A stretch of DNA of 54,407 nt from Thermoplasmatota archaeon (GCA_035687045.1 DASRYU010000177.1:1-54407), one strand, 5' to 3'; positions 5,675 to 14,022 are shown, counted from the first letter of the stretch. Program-made: numbers and translations. Notes: generated by a model from the letters alone, not told the origin.

Positions 5675-6838
5675 TCACTCCGGCGGCCGCGGCGTGCGCA
5701 CGGTCACCGTCGCCGAGCGCGGCCCTTCGTTCCCCATTTCGTTGACCGCGCTCACGCTGTAGGTGTAGGCGGTGTCGGGGGCGACGGTCGTGTCCTCGTA
5801 GGAGGTGGCGGTGGTGCTGCCGATGCGGATGTCGCCGCGGTAGATGCGGTAGTTGTGGACGGCGCTGCCTTGCGAGTGGGACCAGGCGAGGCGGACGCTG
5901 GCGTGCGAGGTGTCCTGCGCGGAGAGGGCGGCGGGCGCGGCGGGGAGGGCCTTGGAGAGCTGGCGGTTCTGGTAGGCCTTGTAGCCGTCGTAGATGAGCG
6001 GGACGCCGACGAGGAGGAAGAGCGTGATGCCGAGCATCACCCAGAGGTCCTTGGGGGCGTAGGCGTTGCCGATCTTGGGCCAGAGGATCTTCCCCGTCTG
6101 GTCGCGAGGGGGGTTCGGGTCGTTGGGCTCCTTCGCGAGGGCGAGCTTGATGAGGCCGAGCCACGGGAGCTCGCCGCGGCCTTTGCCTTCGATCCATTCC
6201 ATCTGGACGGGCATGCTCCGTCCGCGCGCGTCGTGCGAGAGGCCGGAGACCTGGTCCGTCTGCGTGTTGGTGATCGGGTTGTCGCCCTTGGTGAGGAAGC
6301 CGCTCACGTCGGGCCGGTACGGCTCGGGGTCGCTGGGGCGGGAGAGGCGTTCGGCGATGGGGACGCTCGGGATGTAGATGCCTTCCTCGCCGAAGCGGCA
6401 CCAGGTGCGGCCGTTGCGCTCGACCTTCTCGCTGCCGCCTTCGCAGGGGGCGTTGGGGTCCCAGCGCACGTAGTACGTCGGGCCGGGCTCGACCTCGACG
6501 TAGGCGACGGCGCGGTGGATGATGGGCGTGCGCGCGCGGTTGTTGGCGGGGTAGAAGACGATGACGTCGCCCGGCAGGCCGTAGCGCTCGCGCCCTCCTT
6601 CGAGGAGCGTCGTGATATCATCGACGTCGTCGACGTCCTTGACGAGGACGAGGTCGCCCGGGTCGATGGTGCCGAAGCGGCCGTAGGTGACCTCCGTGTC
6701 GGGGTGCATCATGCTGCCCGACTCGACGATGACGGCCGGGGGCCAGGAGCCGGTGTAGGCGAAGAGGCCGCCAAGGAGGAGGGCGAACACGGCGATGAGG
6801 ACGAGCGCGTCCCGCACCGCCGCGGAGCGTATGGCCAC
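5675..6838 (-). CDS. Signal peptidase I, archaeal/ER Sec11-SipW type (S26B), with a second TM helix and a C-terminal fibronectin type III domain
   Basis: GTG start at 6838. An N-terminal TM helix is followed by VESGSMMHP (catalytic Ser), PIIHRAV (His) and TKGDNP boxes. A second TM (LGITLFLLVGVPLIY) precedes an FN3-like tail (VRLAWSHS..YRIYR..YTYSVSAVN). An oligo-T run (5667-5672 on the minus strand) follows the stop codon directly. Confidence 0.85.
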   Translation of the reverse strand: MAIRSAAVRDALVLIAVFALLLGGLFAYTGSWPPAVIVESGSMMHPDTEVTYGRFGTIDPGDLVLVKDVDDVDDITTLLEGGRERYGLPGDVIVFYPANNRARTPIIHRAVAYVEVEPGPTYYVRWDPNAPCEGGSEKVERNGRTWCRFGEEGIYIPSVPIAERLSRPSDPEPYRPDVSGFLTKGDNPITNTQTDQVSGLSHDARGRSMPVQMEWIEGKGRGELPWLGLIKLALAKEPNDPNPPRDQTGKILWPKIGNAYAPKDLWVMLGITLFLLVGVPLIYDGYKAYQNRQLSKALPAAPAALSAQDTSHASVRLAWSHSQGSAVHNYRIYRGDIRIGSTTATSYEDTTVAPDTAYTYSVSAVNEMGNEGPRSATVTVRTPRPPE

Positions 6839-6860
6839 GCGCCTCGCACGGGAGGTCGCC

Positions 6861-6866
6861 TTATAA
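6861..6866 (-). promoter_or_regulatory. TATA-like box (TTATAA) for the SPase-FN3 gene
   Basis: This is the only AT-rich hexamer in the 33-nt gap between the two peptidase genes. It lies about 25 nt upstream of the GTG start at 6838, which fits a leaderless archaeal transcript. Confidence 0.4.
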
Positions 6867-6871
6867 CGGTT

Positions 6872-7732
6872 TCAGCGTCGGCCGCGCTCTTCCCGCCGCG
6901 CGCGCAGCGCCTTCCACGCGTCGTAGAGGAGCGGCGCGCCCACGAGAAGGAACAGGGAGACGCCGAGCATGACCCAGAGGTCCTTGGGCGCGTACGCGCT
7001 GCCGATCTTGACCCAGGCCTCGGGCGGGTTGTCCTGGTTGGGTTTGGCGGCGAGCGCGAGCTTGAGGAGGCCCAGCCACGGGAGCTCGCCGCGCGCCTTG
7101 CCTTCGAGCCATTCGAGCGGCACGGGCTGGCGCACGTCGGGCATCGTGATCTGGTCGATGGCCTGGTTCGTGACGGGGTTGTCCCCCTTCGTGATGAAGC
7201 CGTTGCGCGTGGGCTTGTAGCCGATGTCCTCGTTGCCCGCGCCGAGGCCGCCGCGCACGCCCATCGACGGGATGAGGATGCCGTCGCGCCCGTAGTGGCA
7301 CCACGAGCGCCCCCCGCGCTGGATCTTCGTCGCGCCCCCTTCGCAGGGCGCGTCGTCGCTCCAGCGCACGTCGTACTCGCCCGCGTTGACCTCGACGTAG
7401 GCGACGGCGCGGTGGATGATGGGCGTGCGCGTGCGGTCGTTCATCCGATAGTAGACGATGACGTCGCCGGGGTAGCCGTAGCGATCCCGCCCGCCCTCGG
7501 CGCGCGTCGTCACGTCGTCGAGGGAGTCGACGCTCTTCACGAGCACGAGGTCGCCCGGGTCGATGGTGCCGAAGCGGCCGTAGGTGACCTCACGGTCGGC
7601 GTGCATCATGCTCCCCGACTCGACGATGACCGCCGGGGGCCAGTTCTGCGTGTAGAGGGCGAGCGCGCCGAGGAACGCGACGAACACGCCGACGAGGACG
7701 AGCGCCTCGCGCACGCGCGGCGAGAGCGCCAT
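6872..7732 (-). CDS. Signal peptidase I, archaeal/ER Sec11-SipW type (S26B), paralogue of 5675..6838
   Basis: ORF 6872..8140, trimmed to ATG 7732 (MALSPRVREALVLVGVF..). It has the same VESGSMMH, PIIHRAV and TKGDNP boxes and a shared Cys-pair insert (APCEGG..WC). It ends just after TM2 with a basic tail. Confidence 0.88.
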   Translation of the reverse strand: MALSPRVREALVLVGVFVAFLGALALYTQNWPPAVIVESGSMMHADREVTYGRFGTIDPGDLVLVKSVDSLDDVTTRAEGGRDRYGYPGDVIVYYRMNDRTRTPIIHRAVAYVEVNAGEYDVRWSDDAPCEGGATKIQRGGRSWCHYGRDGILIPSMGVRGGLGAGNEDIGYKPTRNGFITKGDNPVTNQAIDQITMPDVRQPVPLEWLEGKARGELPWLGLLKLALAAKPNQDNPPEAWVKIGSAYAPKDLWVMLGVSLFLLVGAPLLYDAWKALRARREERGRR

Positions 7733-8775
7733 CAGGCCACCGCCCCGCTCGCGCGAAGGCGCGCGACGTCCGCGTCGGAGTATCCCGCCGCACGCAGCAC
7801 GAGGTCGGTGTGCTCGCCACGCTCCGGTGCGGGGCGGGGCGCGGCGCGGACGAGCGGCGTCGCGGGTCCGACCTCGGCGCGCACCTCGTCGGCCGCCAGC
7901 ACGTGCGTGATGGGGACGCCGGCCTTGCGCAGCGTCGAGACCCACTCCTTGGCGGGGCGGGAGGCGAAGAGGCGCTCCAGCACGGCGTGCCCTTCGGGGT
8001 CGTACTGGAGCATCGCGTTGACGCCTGTCGCCTCGGCGAAGCGCTCGAAGAAGCGCGCCTCGAGCGCCGCGAACGCGACGTGGCGTCCGTCGGCGCAACG
8101 GTAGACGCGATAGCACGGGATGCTTCCCGTGAGCTCCCACGCGCCGCGCGCGTCCTCGCCCGCGCGTGCGCGCGCGAGCGGCAGCGTGTTGAGCGCCATC
8201 GCCGACTCCATGAGCGAGACCTCGACGCGCGCCCCCTTCCCGCTCCGCTCGCGCTGCCAGAGCGCGGCGAGGACGGCGCTGGCGCCATAGAGCGCGCCCC
8301 CCATGTCGGCGACCTGCGTCGGCGGCGGGCGCGGCTCGGCGCCGCCCAGGGTCAGGATGCCCGCGAGCGCCTGGTAGTTGAGGTCGTGCCCCACCTCGTC
8401 GCGGTGCTCGCCGGGAGGATATCCGACGAGCGAGAGGCGCACGAGGCGCGGGTTGACGCGCGCGAGCGTCGCGTCGTCGAGCCCGAGGCGGTCCATGACA
8501 CCGGGGCGGAAGCTCTCGACAAGCACGTCGCTTCGCTCCGCGAGCCGCAGCGCGACCTCGCGTCCGGCCTCCGTCTTGAGGTCGACGACGATGCTGCGCT
8601 TGCCGCCGTTCAACGCCTCGAAGGCGTAGGGCATCAGGCGCGCCTCGTCGCCGACGCCGGGCGCCTCCAGCTTCACGACCTCCGCGCCAAGCTCGGCGAG
8701 AAGCTGTGTCAGGAAGGGGCCGGGCAGGAGGCGCGAGAGGTCGAGGACTTGGAGCCCCGCGAGCGTGCCGTGCAC
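7732..8775 (-). CDS. Family III CoA-transferase (CaiB/BaiF, alpha-methylacyl-CoA racemase-like)
   Basis: ORF 7732..8775. The N-terminus LAGLQVLDLSRLLPGPFLTQLLAELGAEVVKLE and the motifs GKRS..DLK and HDLNY are typical of the family. Its TGA stop overlaps the ATG of the downstream peptidase (TGATG). Confidence 0.9.
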   Translation of the reverse strand: MHGTLAGLQVLDLSRLLPGPFLTQLLAELGAEVVKLEAPGVGDEARLMPYAFEALNGGKRSIVVDLKTEAGREVALRLAERSDVLVESFRPGVMDRLGLDDATLARVNPRLVRLSLVGYPPGEHRDEVGHDLNYQALAGILTLGGAEPRPPPTQVADMGGALYGASAVLAALWQRERSGKGARVEVSLMESAMALNTLPLARARAGEDARGAWELTGSIPCYRVYRCADGRHVAFAALEARFFERFAEATGVNAMLQYDPEGHAVLERLFASRPAKEWVSTLRKAGVPITHVLAADEVRAEVGPATPLVRAAPRPAPERGEHTDLVLRAAGYSDADVARLRASGAVA

Positions 8776-8819
8776 GCGCGGCGTACGCGCCGACGCGCCA
8801 TCAACCCGTCGTCGCGCGA

Positions 8820-10043
8820 CTACCGGCGTCGGCGCAGCGCGAACGCGGCGCCTCCCGCGGCGAGGACGCCGAGGGCGACGCCGCCGGCCGCGATCGGATG
8901 CCAGGCCGCGCCCGCCTCGCCCGCGGCGCCGCCGACGACGAGGATGCCCTCGTTCGGCGGCGTGCGGAAGCCGTCGTAGACGACGTGCGCGACGAGCCTC
9001 AGCGGCCCGGCGACGGGGCTTGTGAAGTAGGCGACGAGCTCAATGCTCTCGCCCGCCGCGACGGAGAGCTCCTCGCTCGAGAACACGCCGACGAGCCGGT
9101 CCCCCTGCCAGGCTTCGCCGACGAGGCGCGCCCGTGCGATGGCGGAGGCGCCCGTGTTCTCGAAGTGCCCGCCCACGCGGATCGGGTAGCCGGCGAAGGT
9201 GCTGGGCTCGTGCTGCAGGAAGCGCAGCGTGCCTTCCTTGCCCAGCGTGCCCGGCGGGACGACCTTGAAGCTCGTCTCCGCGAGCGGCGGCGCGTCGTCC
9301 GGCCGCACGAGGACCCGATAGGTGCCTTCGGGGAGTGGCGCGGGAAGCGGGATGCGCAGCTCGCCGCGCTCGCCCGGCCTCAGGCGCGTCGCGTTCGAGG
9401 CGCTCGCGATCTCCGCGCCCGCGGCGTCGAGCACGTGCGCGGTGGCGCGCGCCTGCGTGCGCACGTTCCCTTCGTTCGTCACGCCGACGGCGACGACGGG
9501 CGGCGTGCCCGCCTCGACGTCGCGCGCGTCGGCCGCGAGGAAGCGCAGCTGGACGAGCTGGTCGCCGCCGACGTCCACGTGGAGCGGCACGGCGACCGCG
9601 TACCGGAGCGCGAAGCCGCTTCCGCCGGGCTGCTCCTTCGGCGCGCCCACGAAGCGCAGCATCCCCTCATGCGGCCCGTTCGGCGTCTCCGGCGGCACGA
9701 CGAGGACGACGCGCAGCCTCTCGTTCGTGCGCGGCGGGAGCAGGACGTCCTCCGCGGGCTCCACGCGCGCCCACTCGCCCACCTCCCCCTCGCGCTCGAG
9801 GACGAAGCGCGAGGGCGTGTCGAACTGGTTCTGGAGCGTCACCTCGCGGACGTACGTCTCGCCGCGCTGAGCGGACGAGACGACAACCTCCGTGGGGGTG
9901 ACGCCGAGGCTCTCCCCCTCCGCGGCGCCGCCCGTGGGGAGCGCGAACGAAAGAAGGAGCGCCGCGAGCGCGAGGGCGCGAGCTGCGGGAGCCATCGGCC
10001 GCGGGTGGCGCCTTCGCCGGGAAGAAGGTATCCCGAGCGTCAT
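8820..10043 (-). CDS. Exported protein with three Ig/CARDB-like beta-sandwich modules and a C-terminal TM anchor ending in RRRR
   Basis: ORF 8820..10448, trimmed to ATG 10043 (MTLGIPSSRRRRHPRPMAPAARALALAALLL, possibly Tat-type; an alternative start is M17 at 9995). Repeated modules look like VGVTNEGNV..PGE..L.IPLP..EGTY. The C-terminus is IAAGGVALGVLAAGGAAFALRRRR. An ATGA overlap joins it to the upstream gene. Confidence 0.75.
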   Translation of the reverse strand: MTLGIPSSRRRRHPRPMAPAARALALAALLLSFALPTGGAAEGESLGVTPTEVVVSSAQRGETYVREVTLQNQFDTPSRFVLEREGEVGEWARVEPAEDVLLPPRTNERLRVVLVVPPETPNGPHEGMLRFVGAPKEQPGGSGFALRYAVAVPLHVDVGGDQLVQLRFLAADARDVEAGTPPVVAVGVTNEGNVRTQARATAHVLDAAGAEIASASNATRLRPGERGELRIPLPAPLPEGTYRVLVRPDDAPPLAETSFKVVPPGTLGKEGTLRFLQHEPSTFAGYPIRVGGHFENTGASAIARARLVGEAWQGDRLVGVFSSEELSVAAGESIELVAYFTSPVAGPLRLVAHVVYDGFRTPPNEGILVVGGAAGEAGAAWHPIAAGGVALGVLAAGGAAFALRRRR

Positions 10044-10891
10044 GGGGCCGCGACGGCGGAGACGGTGAGCTCGCCGACGTAGACGCCGGGGCGCAGGCCG
10101 GCAGGCACCTGCATGCTGAAGTAGAGCGGCGCGGTCGCGTTCGCCGCGATCGAGAGCCCCGGCACGGTCTGCGCGCTTGTCGAGAGCGCGACGGGGGAGC
10201 TCATGTTCTGCCAGCGCGCGGCGCGGAGGCTCGAGGGGGGCACGCTGCTCTCGTGCGTCGCGTTGGAGAGCGCCGTCGCGGCGAGCGTCACGTTCACCGG
10301 GACGTTCCCGCCGTTGGTGACGTTGACCGCGACGGGCGTGGTCTCGGCGGCGCCGGGCGCGAACCCCGCGGAGCCGGTGGGGACGAGCGAGACGTTCTCC
10401 TGCGCGAGCGCGAGCGCCGCGAGGGGCTCGTACGTGAAGTTCGTCCACGCGAGGGACACGGCGGAGTCGCGGTCGATGGCTTCCGCTCGAAGGATGTACG
10501 TTCCGGGCGTGTCGTTGCTCGCCATGGTGACGGTGGCGCGCCAGGTGGCGCGCGTGCCGCTCGCGCTGAGCTTCGCCGCGTCCACGGCCTGCCGATGGAT
10601 GGTCACGTTGTCCGCCTTGAGGACGGTCACCGTGACGCGGCGCACGTCGTTGTGCCCGTTCTCGTCGTCGAGGATGATGTCCGTCGGGAACTGCCGGGGG
10701 CCGCCCGCGCGCGGGTTCACCTGCGTGCCCGGGCGGGAAGGGTCGTCGTCGCCGCTGGAGGCGTCGGGTCGCTGCGCCTGCGGGGCGCGGGCGACGACCT
10801 CGACGCGCGAGGGCGCGCTCTGCGCGAGCCCCGCGAGGAGGATGGCGGCGACGACAAGGAAGGCGAAGGCGCGGGCGCGCAGGAGTCTCAC
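10040..10891 (-). CDS. Secreted two-domain beta-sandwich protein (paralogue A2), sequon-rich
   Basis: GTG 10891 lies in a GTGA overlap with the upstream stop codon. The signal peptide is RLLRARAFAFLVVAAILLAGLAQS. It carries LDDENGHND, VNVTNGGNVPVNVTLAATAL and a C-terminal GVYVGELTVSAV strand, plus 8 N-x-S/T sequons. Confidence 0.75.
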   Translation of the reverse strand: MRLLRARAFAFLVVAAILLAGLAQSAPSRVEVVARAPQAQRPDASSGDDDPSRPGTQVNPRAGGPRQFPTDIILDDENGHNDVRRVTVTVLKADNVTIHRQAVDAAKLSASGTRATWRATVTMASNDTPGTYILRAEAIDRDSAVSLAWTNFTYEPLAALALAQENVSLVPTGSAGFAPGAAETTPVAVNVTNGGNVPVNVTLAATALSNATHESSVPPSSLRAARWQNMSSPVALSTSAQTVPGLSIAANATAPLYFSMQVPAGLRPGVYVGELTVSAVAAP

Positions 10892-11745
10892 CCCTTCACG
10901 GCGCTGACGGTGACCGTGCCGGTGTACGTGCCGCTGGGGACCCACTGCGCGTCGCCGCTCGGAACGGCCAGGCGCCAGTAGAGGCTGCGGGAGCTCGCCG
11001 CGCCGGCGCCGAGGTCGAAGCTCGAGAGCGTCGTGGAGGAGCTTCCCATCGCGGTCGCGTCGGACATGTTGCTCGCGAGCGAGTAGCGCAGGGCGGAGAC
11101 GGGGATGGAGGCGTCCTCGCTCGCGTGGGCGAGGGCCGTCGCGGCAAGCTGCGTGTCCACCTGGACGTTGCCCGCGTTCTGCACGGCGAGCGCGAGGATG
11201 TCGCTCTGCGCGGCGGGGGCGACGCTCGCGCCGAAGTTGAACGTGCTGCGGTCGAGCTGGATGGCGGCAAGCTCCGCGTACGCGAAGACGAGCGGCGAGA
11301 CGAGGTTCGTCCCGGTGGCGCCCTGCTTGTCGGTGGCGGTCACGCGCAGCTGGTATCCCGTCTCCAGCGCGGCGGGCGCGTCGTGGAAGCGCATGGGGAA
11401 GACGTAGCGGTAGGTCGCGGCCGTCCCGGCGGAGCACGAGACGTAGCTCGCCGCCGAGCTTGCGGTGTGGACGGCTCCGCCTGGGGTGCGCACTTCGGCG
11501 ACGACGCTCGCGAGGTCGTTGCAGCCGTTGAGGTCCGTGATGACGAGCGTCGCCGTGACGTTCGTGACGCCGCCGGCGGTGGGGGAGACGCTCGTGGAGG
11601 GGAGCGCCGCGCTCGTGACGGTGGGGGCGGCGTTCGTGATGGTGATGCTCGTCGTGGCGCCCAGCACGGTCGCGGGCACGAGCAGGAGCGCGGCGAGCGC
11701 GAGGCCGACCCGGCGGAGCGCGCGGGACGCGGAGGAGCGAGACAT
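10888..11745 (-). CDS. Secreted two-domain beta-sandwich protein (paralogue A1)
   Basis: ORF 10888..12312, trimmed to ATG 11745 (MSRSSASRALRRVGLALAALLLVPATVLG). It carries ITDLNGCND, VQNAGNVQVDTQLAATAL and a C-terminal SGTYTGTVTVSAV strand. It is clearly paralogous to 10040..10891. Confidence 0.75.
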   Translation of the reverse strand: MSRSSASRALRRVGLALAALLLVPATVLGATTSITITNAAPTVTSAALPSTSVSPTAGGVTNVTATLVITDLNGCNDLASVVAEVRTPGGAVHTASSAASYVSCSAGTAATYRYVFPMRFHDAPAALETGYQLRVTATDKQGATGTNLVSPLVFAYAELAAIQLDRSTFNFGASVAPAAQSDILALAVQNAGNVQVDTQLAATALAHASEDASIPVSALRYSLASNMSDATAMGSSSTTLSSFDLGAGAASSRSLYWRLAVPSGDAQWVPSGTYTGTVTVSAVKG

Positions 11746-11864
11746 GTCAGGCTCCTCTCGCTCGCTCCCCCTACTCATCCGGTCTGCCCGTGCCCCATTG
11801 ACGCAGCGGTGCAGTGGCGCAGGCGCGGCCGCTCGCCCGGCTGGCGGCCCGGCTGGCGCCCGCG

Positions 11865-12302
11865 CTACGGGATGAGCGTCACGCGCACGTTCGCCCGCTC
11901 CGAGATGGCGGCCGCGTTCGGGCCCACTTCGACGTGCCCCGGCTGGTACGATTTGTGGCCGATCACGATCTCCGTGGCGCCCAGCTCTGCCGCGGCGCGC
12001 ACGAACTCGTCGACCGTCTCGCCCGCCCGCACCTCCGCGAGCACCTTCACGCCGGACGCGGCGAGCGCCCCCGCCTGCTCCTCCAGCCGCTTGCGCGCGG
12101 CCTCCTCGAACGTGCGCGAGAGCTCGGGGGGCAGCGCGAGGCCGGCGGGCAGCAGGTCGGTGAGCGTCGAGCGCGCCACCTGCGCGGGGACGATGGTGAG
12201 GAGGACAAGCTCGTGCTTCTCGGCGCGCGCGCGTTCCGCCGCGTGGGCGAGCGCGCGCTGGGAGACCGGGGAGCCATCGATGCCGACGAGGATGCGGCCC
12301 AT
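11865..12302 (-). CDS. Universal stress protein (UspA family)
   Basis: ORF 11865..12302. MGRILVGIDGSPVSQRALAHA.., ..GATEIVIGHK.. and the 145-aa length are typical of the family. Confidence 0.85.
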   Translation of the reverse strand: MGRILVGIDGSPVSQRALAHAAERARAEKHELVLLTIVPAQVARSTLTDLLPAGLALPPELSRTFEEAARKRLEEQAGALAASGVKVLAEVRAGETVDEFVRAAAELGATEIVIGHKSYQPGHVEVGPNAAAISERANVRVTLIP

Positions 12303-12323
12303 GCGCCCGCATACGCCGAAGGG

Positions 12324-12330
12324 CTTATCA
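12324..12330. promoter_or_regulatory. Shared TATA-like element of a divergent leaderless promoter pair (usp / mcm)
   Basis: CTTATCA is the only AT-rich patch in the 52-nt divergent spacer. Its centre is 25 nt from the usp ATG (12302) and 28 nt from the mcm ATG (12355). Confidence 0.4.
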
Positions 12331-12354
12331 CCGCCACCCCCTCATGCGAAAACG

Positions 12355-14022
12355 ATGTCGGACGACCTCGCGGCGCAGAAGAAGCGGTGGGAGGAGAAGA
12401 CGCTCAAGCCCGCCCTGGCGAAGGCCCCCGAGCGCCGCGCGTCGTTCGTCACCGCCTCGTCCAAGCCCGTCGAGCGCCTCTACGGGCCCTGGGACATCCC
12501 GGGCTTCGACCACGACCGCGACCTCGGCTATCCGGGCGAGTTCCCCTTCACGCGCGGCGTCCAGGCGACCATGTACCGCGGCCGCCTCTGGACCATGCGC
12601 CAGTTCGCCGGCTACGGAACCGCCGAGGAGACCAACGAGCGCTTCAAGTTCCTCCTCTCGCAGGGGCAGACCGGCCTCTCCACCGCGTTCGACTTCTGCA
12701 CGCTCCAAGGCTTCGACTCCGACCACCCCTGGTCGCAGGGCGAGGTCGGGAAGGTCGGCGTCGCCATCGACACCGTGGAGGACATGGAGACGCTCTTCGC
12801 GGACATCCCGCTCGACAAGGTCAGCGTCTCGATGACCATCAACGGCCCCGCGCCCATCCTCTGGGCGATGTACCTCGCGGCGGCCGAGAAGCGCGGCTTC
12901 GCCCTCGACAAGCTCGCGGGCACGACGCAGAACGACATCCTGAAGGAATACCAGGCGCAGAAGATGTTCATCTTCCCGCCCGGGCCCTCGCTCCGGCTCG
13001 TCCTCGACACGTTCGAGTTCGGCTCCAAGCGCGTCCCGCTGTGGAACACCATCAGCATCTCGGGCTACCACATCCGCGAGGCGGGCTCGACGGCGCAGCA
13101 GGAGCTCGCCTTCACGCTCGCCAACGGCATGACCTACGTCCGCATGGCGAAGGAGCGCGGCCTCGACCCCGACGAGTTCGGCCCGCGCCTCTCCTTCTTC
13201 TTCAACAGCCACAACGACTTCTTCGAGGAGATCGCGAAGTTCCGCGCCGCGCGCCGCATCTGGGCGAAGTTCATGCGCGACGAGATCGGCTGCAAGAACC
13301 CGCGCGCGTGGCTCCTCCGCTTCCACACGCAGACCGCCGGCGTGAGCTGCACGGCGCAGCAGCCGGAGAACAACATCGTCCGCACGACGATCCAGGCGCT
13401 CGCGGCGGTGCTGGGCGGGACCCAGTCGCTCCACACGAACTCCTTCGACGAGGCGCTCGCGCTCCCCACCGAGAAGGCCGTGCGCATCGCGCTTCGCACG
13501 CAGCAGATCCTCGCGCACGAGTCGGGCGTGGCGAACACGATCGACCCGCTGGGCGGCAGCTACTTCGTCGAGACGCTCACGAACGAGATGGAAGAGGCCG
13601 CGAACAAGTACTTCGACCAGATCGAGAAGATCGGCGGCGTCGTCGCGGGCATCGAGAAGGGCTGGTTCCAGCAGCAGATCGCCGAGTCCTCCTACCGCTA
13701 CGTGAAGGAGATCGAGCGCAAGGAGCGCATCATCGTCGGCGTCAACGAGTACACGATCGAGGAGGAGCCGATGAGCGAGATCCTCAAGATCTCCGAGGAC
13801 TCCGAGAAGCGCCAGCTCGAGCGCCTCGCCCGCGTGAAGCGCACGCGCGACCAGAAGAAGGTCGACGACGCGCTCCACAGGCTCCAGGTCGCCTGCGAGA
13901 AGGAGGCCGAGAACCTCATGCCCTACCTCATCGAGGCCGCGCACGCGTACGCGACGCTCGGCGAGATCCGCGAGGCGATGGTCAAGATCTACGGAGAGTA
14001 CCGCGAGCCGGCCATCTTCTGA
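12355..14022 (+). CDS. Methylmalonyl-CoA mutase, large catalytic subunit (no B12-binding domain)
   Basis: This is the 3' part of ORF 11125..14022, starting at ATG 12355 (MSDDLAAQKKRWEEK). Motifs are FPFTRGV, TMRQFAGYGTAEETNERFKFLL, GQTGLSTAFD and NDILKEY. At 555 aa it matches the split archaeal-type large subunit. Confidence 0.92.
   Translation: MSDDLAAQKKRWEEKTLKPALAKAPERRASFVTASSKPVERLYGPWDIPGFDHDRDLGYPGEFPFTRGVQATMYRGRLWTMRQFAGYGTAEETNERFKFLLSQGQTGLSTAFDFCTLQGFDSDHPWSQGEVGKVGVAIDTVEDMETLFADIPLDKVSVSMTINGPAPILWAMYLAAAEKRGFALDKLAGTTQNDILKEYQAQKMFIFPPGPSLRLVLDTFEFGSKRVPLWNTISISGYHIREAGSTAQQELAFTLANGMTYVRMAKERGLDPDEFGPRLSFFFNSHNDFFEEIAKFRAARRIWAKFMRDEIGCKNPRAWLLRFHTQTAGVSCTAQQPENNIVRTTIQALAAVLGGTQSLHTNSFDEALALPTEKAVRIALRTQQILAHESGVANTIDPLGGSYFVETLTNEMEEAANKYFDQIEKIGGVVAGIEKGWFQQQIAESSYRYVKEIERKERIIVGVNEYTIEEEPMSEILKISEDSEKRQLERLARVKRTRDQKKVDDALHRLQVACEKEAENLMPYLIEAAHAYATLGEIREAMVKIYGEYREPAIF

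Follow-up and report, generated by a model that had tools for sequence, protein, structure and literature searches.

A conserved trio of secreted and membrane-anchored immunoglobulin-type proteins in a Thermoplasmatota archaeon, a candidate system for protein attachment or assembly at the cell surface

The DNA analysed was a stretch of 54,407 nucleotides from a Thermoplasmatota archaeon (GCA_035687045.1, DASRYU010000177.1:1-54407), called the window here, with a guanine plus cytosine (GC) content of 73%. Positions 5675-11745 of the minus strand carried six genes in series, encoding A1, A2, A3, a CoA-transferase and two signal peptidases (SP1 and SP2). A1 and A2 are paralogues with signal peptides, each made up of a two-domain unit referred to below as the module, and A3 is a membrane-anchored protein with immunoglobulin (Ig)-type domains. 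These first three genes, the trio, are the subject of this report, and their features are as follows.

10888-11745, minus strand: A1, secreted module-only protein of 285 amino acids (aa), with an ATG start and a GGAG-type ribosome-binding site
11659-11745, minus strand: A1 signal peptide, residues ~1-29
11278-11658, minus strand: A1 domain 1, Ig sandwich with D-x-N-G-x-x-D, residues ~30-156
10891-11277, minus strand: A1 domain 2, ASH-like Ig domain reaching the C-terminus, residues ~157-285
10040-10891, minus strand: A2, paralogue of A1, 283 aa, GTG start, signal peptide at residues ~1-25
8820-10043, minus strand: A3, the partner with a membrane anchor, 407 aa, shortened to 391 aa if the ATG at 9995 is the start
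~9561-9920, minus strand: A3 domain 1 (D1), PapD/ASH-like
~9255-9560, minus strand: A3 domain 2
~8925-9254, minus strand: A3 domain 3
8826-8903, minus strand: A3 C-terminal transmembrane helix, followed by RRRR

The start of A2 overlaps the stop of A1 through GTGA. A first-pass annotation of this DNA had chained all three genes in this manner, and the A1/A2 overlap stood, whereas the ATGA overlap of A2 and A3 hinged on the start chosen for A3: it is present if the 407-aa start is taken, the database gene call begins at M17 (391 aa, window 9995), and the relatives show gaps of ~40 nt at the A2/A3 junction, so that this overlap is uncertain. The mature N-terminus of A3 after the signal peptide is ESLGVTP. 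Export of A3 by the Tat route through an RRRR in the long N-terminal variant was considered and rejected, since the sequence has no consensus motif for Tat and the start given in the database lies downstream.

A1 and A2 were 34% identical (E 1e-26), and the motifs on which their paralogy had first been proposed were all present and conserved. D71, N73, G74, N190, G192, N193, G272 and Y274 were invariant in 23 of 23 sequences of the A1/A2 family, D77 was conserved in at least 90% of the same sequences, and D139 of domain 1 was also invariant. The pattern of D71, N73, G74, D77 and D139 in A1 domain 1 points to a likely metal-binding site, probably for Ca2+. Domain 2 carried N-x-G-N and a C-terminal end of the form G-x-Y-x-G-x-[VL]-T-[VL]-x-A, and the stretch F-x-Y-x-E-L-A-A-L between the two domains was among the best conserved of the family. 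A2 contained 9 N-x-S/T sequons, one more than previously counted, against 2.1±1.3 expected from shuffling; the excess was shared by close orthologues but not by distant ones.

The AlphaFold2 (AF2) model of A1, with a predicted local distance difference test score (pLDDT) of 85, showed two tandem Ig-type sandwiches, both of them complete. Among the 50 Protein Data Bank (PDB) matches listed by Foldseek for A1, all were generic two-Ig arrangements, with RbmA the best (1e-6), followed by integrin, CsuC-CsuE, CEP192 SPD-2/ASH and transglutaminase barrels; no TasA, AbpA or CanA entry was present among the 50. Peptidase_M73 gave no match to A1, A2 or any of the 23 family members, even at E ≤ 10, and a kinship with TasA and camelysin, which the first-pass annotation had put forward, was not borne out by either result. 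The WxL Pfam domain matched neither the window proteins nor their family, there was no dual W-x-L motif family-wide, and a single Y-W-x-L strand was found in the A1 subfamily only. Searches of A1, A2 and A3 against Pfam and NCBIfam returned nothing but sub-threshold Ig-family matches, and when profiles of the module and of the A3 family were compared with PDB sequences the best match was FAP74 (E 0.044) and no pilin was found.

For A3, the AF2 model (pLDDT 88) showed three Ig-type beta-sandwich domains and a C-terminal transmembrane helix ending in RRRR, in agreement with the earlier description except in length, which had been given as 408 aa. The best Foldseek matches were ASH-domain arrays of ciliary central-pair proteins (1e-13); macroglobulin domains came next, and the WxLIP structures solved for Enterococcus faecium (9i25_C and 9i1y_A) were matched at E 1e-8 with a template modelling score (TM) of 0.34-0.36. 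When diverse homologues of D1 were searched against Pfam, the sub-threshold matches clustered on the PapD-like/MSP/ASH/Cep192 group and on WxLIP_PGBD: Cep192_D6 reached E 3e-7 (31 bits, cut-off 35), MSP 3e-3 and PapD-like 0.012, HYDIN Ig was also matched, and WxLIP_PGBD gave no better than E 0.036-0.18. The modelled fold of A3 appears ASH/PapD-like and also matches WxLIP. Family-wide, D1 opens with G-[VI]-[ST]-P and is followed by 0-2 further Ig domains, a transmembrane helix and a basic tail, and the loop before the last strand of D1 was conserved and modelled with low confidence. No relationship between the module and A3 profiles was found by hhalign, so A3 is something other than the module with a tether attached.

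The A1-A2-A3 trio was present in every relative examined (L001/L002, L003, L004, L005, L006, L019 and L020), with ~69% identity in L001/L002; in all, it was conserved in 8 independent Thermoplasmatota-type loci besides that of the window, which upholds the earlier proposal that the three genes form a functional unit. In named genomes, the relatives of A1 were Thermoplasmatota metagenome-assembled genomes (MAGs; L005 and L006). A word-indexed search returned 16 A1, 7 A2 and 14 A3 clusters. Two genes for CheY-like receiver domains lay between the A2 and A3 orthologues of one MAG (SMAG_U4521, L005 2480-4029). When metagenomes were scanned with the A3 alignment, the one match was a 2.6-kb Joint Genome Institute (JGI) contig (Ga0247718_1011216, L018 1-2587), which was 99.8% identical to window positions 9362-11948, so the same population appears to have been sampled again in that metagenome.

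The module extended far beyond the trio. A profile of A1 and A2 together was run against 1.84 billion representatives and matched 2558 representative proteins at E ≤ 1e-3, with 1077 at E ≤ 1e-10. Architectures were counted in the 124 top matches bearing the complete two-domain module: 92 were module-only proteins (≤335 aa), 29 were larger proteins with the end of the module no more than 8 residues from the C-terminus, and 3 had it N-terminally. The other domains of the large proteins, one of them from Ca. Argoarchaeum ethanivorans, were Peptidase_C25, CARDB arrays, NosD/beta-helix, LTD and CBM96, and neither Pfam nor NCBIfam had a model over the module region. Giant secreted proteins (P0117, P0129, P0160 and P0179), with lengths reaching 4692 aa, contained domain 1 of the module alone, repeated 4-10 times in tandem.

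In distant loci the module was again accompanied by A3. A homologue of A3 adjoined the module gene in 13 of 14 independent loci. An archaeon with 39% GC (L007/L008) carried an LTD+module gene followed after 1 nt by a full-length A3 homologue of 378 aa (E ~2e-32), complete with a G-V-S-P start, three domains, a transmembrane helix and a basic tail. The loci of Ca. Argoarchaeum (L009) and L012 had A3 homologues at E 4e-61 and 7e-59, respectively, and shared one gene order, in which a small module-like protein was followed by the A3 homologue, an AF_1625_C protein and a large module protein. A module-only gene stood with a 418-aa A3 homologue (4e-57) in L013, two module proteins were followed by a two-domain A3-like transmembrane protein (1e-17) in L015, and an LTD+module gene was followed by a one-domain A3-like transmembrane protein in L017 (1e-5; Cep192_D6 3e-7). 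The minimal conserved partner of the module is A3 domain 1 with a transmembrane anchor.

Three further observations were made at these loci. The AF_1625_C proteins (L009 1995-3443 and L012 2069-3493) each carried a copy of module domain 1 at the N-terminus (E ~1e-11) and may be a further component in Methanosarcinales-type loci. The Argoarchaeum A3 homologue (L009 781-1989) had a C-terminus reading ...IPGFSGSILIIAIMLICFMYKKR, with a PGF-like motif before the transmembrane helix, which hints at processing by an archaeosortase; no match to NCBIfam PGF-CTERM was listed for it at E ≤ 0.1. Dockerin- or cohesin-type genes lay beside module and A3 genes in low-GC loci (L009 8507-9061, L011 9302-13863 and L015 8138-10051), so two different surface-assembly systems appear clustered at several of them.

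Any interpretation has to account for a secreted module, lacking an anchor of its own, at the extreme C-terminus of diverse cargo, for paralogues that are module only, and for an adjacent and often translationally coupled A3. The explanation tentatively preferred here, given somewhat less than an even chance, is that A3 tethers module-bearing proteins to the membrane by analogy with WxLIP and the WxL proteins. In Firmicutes, WxLIP holds both small and large WxL proteins (PMC10599100). The resemblance of the trio to these Csc clusters lies in three points: small secreted proteins consist of the attachment domain alone, large proteins bear it C-terminally behind functional domains, and the partner encoded beside the ligands has tandem Ig-like domains and a C-terminal transmembrane helix (DUF916-DUF3324-transmembrane in WxLIP). 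A WxL-like logic had been suggested in the first-pass annotation, and it gained from the structural match of A3 to WxLIP and from the finding that the module also caps large secreted proteins. Unlike WxL, the module is two Ig sandwiches with neither the Pfam domain nor the dual motif, its hosts are archaeal and lack peptidoglycan, three domains are the usual number in A3, and all sequence similarity to the trio proteins was below threshold.

Under the tethering explanation, A1, A2 and A3 would be exported by Sec and cleaved by the general signal peptidase, with A3 staying in the membrane through its C-terminal helix. Domain 1 of A3 would then make a non-covalent contact with the C-terminal Ig domain of module proteins, probably through beta-strand augmentation, and in this way keep them at the cell surface, much as WxLIP does but with no peptidoglycan involved. 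A1 and A2 would occupy the A3 anchor as module-only proteins or act on it as adaptors.

Several points weigh against this explanation. The likeness of A3 to WxLIP is at the level of fold only and ranks under generic matches to ASH arrays, and every Pfam match of A3 falls short of its cut-off. The sample was ~14 loci rather than whole genomes, and one large module gene (L011) had no A3 homologue on its 15.6-kb contig. The conserved pair of A1 and A2 fits a polymer at least as well, and tethering leaves the role of module-only proteins on the anchor unexplained. Finally, the binding of A3 to the module, its mode and the surface display are steps that we infer.

The alternative that survives best, although it is rather doubtful, is a donor-strand-exchange pilus of a monoderm cell, either Pam-like or of an usher-less chaperone-usher type. 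In such a pilus A1 and A2 would serve as the two-domain pilins, major and minor, polymerising by strand donation, the large proteins with a C-terminal module would be tip subunits, and A3 would be a membrane-anchored PapD-like chaperone, a terminal anchor or both. The Pam pilus of candidate phyla radiation (CPR) bacteria consists of the pilins PamA and PamB, the membrane-anchored PapD-like chaperones PamC and PamD, each with a transmembrane helix at the C-terminus, and the anchor PamR, an RbmA-like transmembrane protein; its pilins combine a sandwich at the N-terminus with a linker strand that is donated and a C-terminal Ig domain that is truncated (bioRxiv 10.64898/2026.03.03.709456). Both systems share monoderm cells, two paralogous two-domain Ig-type secreted proteins with Sec signal peptides, an Ig partner with a C-terminal transmembrane helix, matches to an RbmA-like fold and the absence of an usher. 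In A1, RbmA was the best PDB match and CsuC-CsuE was among the others; the sub-threshold matches of A3 D1 were of PapD-like/MSP type, and the conserved, low-confidence loop before its last strand recalls PapD's F1-G1 loop. In ending at the C-terminus the module resembles the pilin domains of FimH and PapG, the strong conservation of F-x-Y-x-E-L-A-A-L between the domains is likewise in keeping with a pilus, and a module homologue (P0114, E 1e-35) shares a low-GC locus with a two-domain A3-like transmembrane protein.

Donor-strand exchange is nevertheless hard to read from the AF2 model, in which both Ig domains of A1 are complete and no strand is evidently missing. The N-terminal segment T-x-V-T-V-x-N-x-A-P was also found inside large proteins, and so belongs to the module itself instead of being a donor extension that is free. 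Proteases of 900-2500 aa and CARDB arrays would be unusual tip cargo, and the profile search of PDB sequences gave no pilin. Pam is reported from CPR only, its pilins are 39 and 55 kDa whereas mature A1 and A2 are ~26 kDa, and the comparison drawn here is one of architecture.

A coat resembling an S-layer, in which A3 would be a SlaB-like stalk and A1 and A2 would form the outer sheet, was judged improbable, as was the related idea that the three are unrelated co-transcribed Ig proteins with binding or enzymatic roles. Many archaeal S-layer proteins are Ig-rich, as are all three proteins of the trio; A3 has the plan of SlaB, with a signal peptide, beta-sandwich domains and a transmembrane helix at its C-terminus, and A2 is rich in N-glycosylation sequons. 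However, a module on very diverse large proteins fits docking better than a lattice subunit, and the A1 family is rare even in Thermoplasmatota, as its 16 clusters in the word-based search indicate.

The remaining three genes of the series and the gene upstream of A1 were annotated as follows.

7732-8775, minus strand: CoA-transferase family III, Pfam CoA_transf_3 E 9.7e-83 (279 bits, above cut-off)
6872-7732, minus strand: SP1, S26B-type signal peptidase, 286 aa, N- and C-terminal transmembrane segments
5675-6838, minus strand: SP2, S26B-type paralogue of SP1, 387 aa, C-terminal fn3 at residues 301-380
11865-12302, minus strand: Usp (universal stress protein), upstream of A1, a neighbour only

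The 44-nt gap after A3 and the CoA-transferase and two S26B-type peptidases beyond it on the same strand were found as first annotated. The start of SP1 overlaps the stop of the CoA-transferase by 1 nt in TGATG (7730-7734), an adjacency also seen in L001, and this arrangement suggests that the two are co-translated. SP1 and SP2 lie in tandem with 62% identity. They resemble the archaeal Sec11/SipW-type S26B peptidases (TIGR02228) in their SGSM, IIHR and GDN boxes and their N- and C-terminal transmembrane segments, but are very divergent: a long insert separates the His box from the GDN box and, in SP2, an fn3 domain follows the second transmembrane segment, where the usual Sec11 topology would place it in the cytoplasm. 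Their matches to TIGR02228 reached E 6e-5 to 1e-4 (22-23 bits), under the cut-off of 52, and those to SEC11A/C in the PDB E 0.09-0.65.

Synteny with the peptidases was examined with a hidden Markov model (HMM) built from SP1 and SP2, and the contigs of L005, L006, L019 and L020 offered ~10 kb of sequence beyond the trio to one side or both. The model matched in the window and in L001 only, with nothing within ~10 kb in those four loci and no match in L003-L017, distant loci included. In L001 a single peptidase copy, bearing fn3, came after Usp and the CoA-transferase, with Usp placed between A3 and the CoA-transferase. The block of trio, CoA-transferase, peptidases and proB-proA is therefore the local synteny of close relatives, and the functional link of trio and peptidases in the first-pass annotation is not supported; synteny in related genomes was a check on which that annotation itself had said the link would fail. 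The CoA-transferase, SP1 and SP2 are neighbours outside the conserved system, and the peptidases are probably housekeeping enzymes. Sec11/S26B is the ordinary type of signal peptidase in archaea and, to our knowledge, the only signal peptidase I type there, which also argues against a special role. Since the host is an archaeon with S26B as its standard, the presence of such a peptidase alone therefore says nothing about dedication to a substrate.

These genes had given rise to the idea of a TasA/TapA-like fibre matured by two linked, dedicated SipW-type peptidases. The tapA-sipW-tasA operon of Bacillus, AbpA/AbpB of Pyrobaculum and the tafi of haloarchaea (TafA-G) do share with the trio secreted beta-rich subunits and an anchoring protein; the peptidases lie on the same strand ~1.1 kb downstream of the trio, AbpB and TapA-like anchors have three beta-rich domains in ~410 aa as A3 does, and the A3 homologue of Argoarchaeum had a very weak TapA match (TIGR04087, E 0.004). 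Both tafi and tapA-sipW-tasA also have a dedicated S26 peptidase; the one in archaea, TafD, bears an additional Ig-like domain, and SP2 carries fn3. However, the trio has no linked peptidase in L005, L006, L019 or L020 or in any distant locus, and a CoA-transferase (plus Usp in L001) intervenes. A1 and A2 are not jelly rolls of the TasA/camelysin kind, searches gave neither Peptidase_M73 nor DUF1102, and a DUF5305 (TafG) partner was lacking. A dedicated peptidase of the tafi type was rejected on the lack of DUF5305 or DUF1102 neighbours, and the idea as a whole was rejected on synteny and fold and is held to be very improbable. A Sec11-type peptidase beside genes for secreted archaeal proteins is not to be read as SipW-like without a synteny check.

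At 73% GC, gene calling from third-position GC content (GC3) was too crude, and genes were searched for with HMMs in open reading frames (ORFs) from all six frames. Antisense and out-of-frame ORFs of up to 1100 codons lay over real genes, at 5855-8104 (plus strand), 10678-14022 (plus strand) and elsewhere; such very long spurious ORFs arise because of the high GC content, and ORF lists alone mislead. The tRNA and Rfam scans of the window gave no matches.

By these features the trio falls outside the TasA and WxL families and probably outside the classical chaperone-usher families as well, and in its working it would be closest to WxL/WxLIP or Pam. A limited literature search found no description of the module/A3 pair, which is proposed as a new pair of families for surface anchoring or assembly, neither with a Pfam or NCBIfam model. 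Few routes of surface retention are known in archaea, namely transmembrane anchors, lipidation through PGF-CTERM and archaeosortase, and association with the S-layer. It is possible, at a confidence well under even, that module and A3 together are an unrecognised and widespread archaeal system for attaching or assembling extracellular proteins, whether for display or as a counterpart of the Pam pilus. Its range would take in Thermoplasmatota, the Methanosarcinales-related Ca. Argoarchaeum and low-GC archaea carrying LTD proteins, and possibly CPR-like bacteria; the two-Ig module at the C-terminus would serve for 'sorting', recognised by a PapD-like protein anchored in the membrane. If this is true, archaea would have a new route of anchoring or assembly, with the module in at least ~1000 representative clusters (1077 at E ≤ 1e-10), and many archaeal surface proteins now listed as 'hypothetical' could be annotated with its help. 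Should it be a donor-strand system, usher-less chaperone-type pilus assembly would extend from CPR bacteria to archaea.

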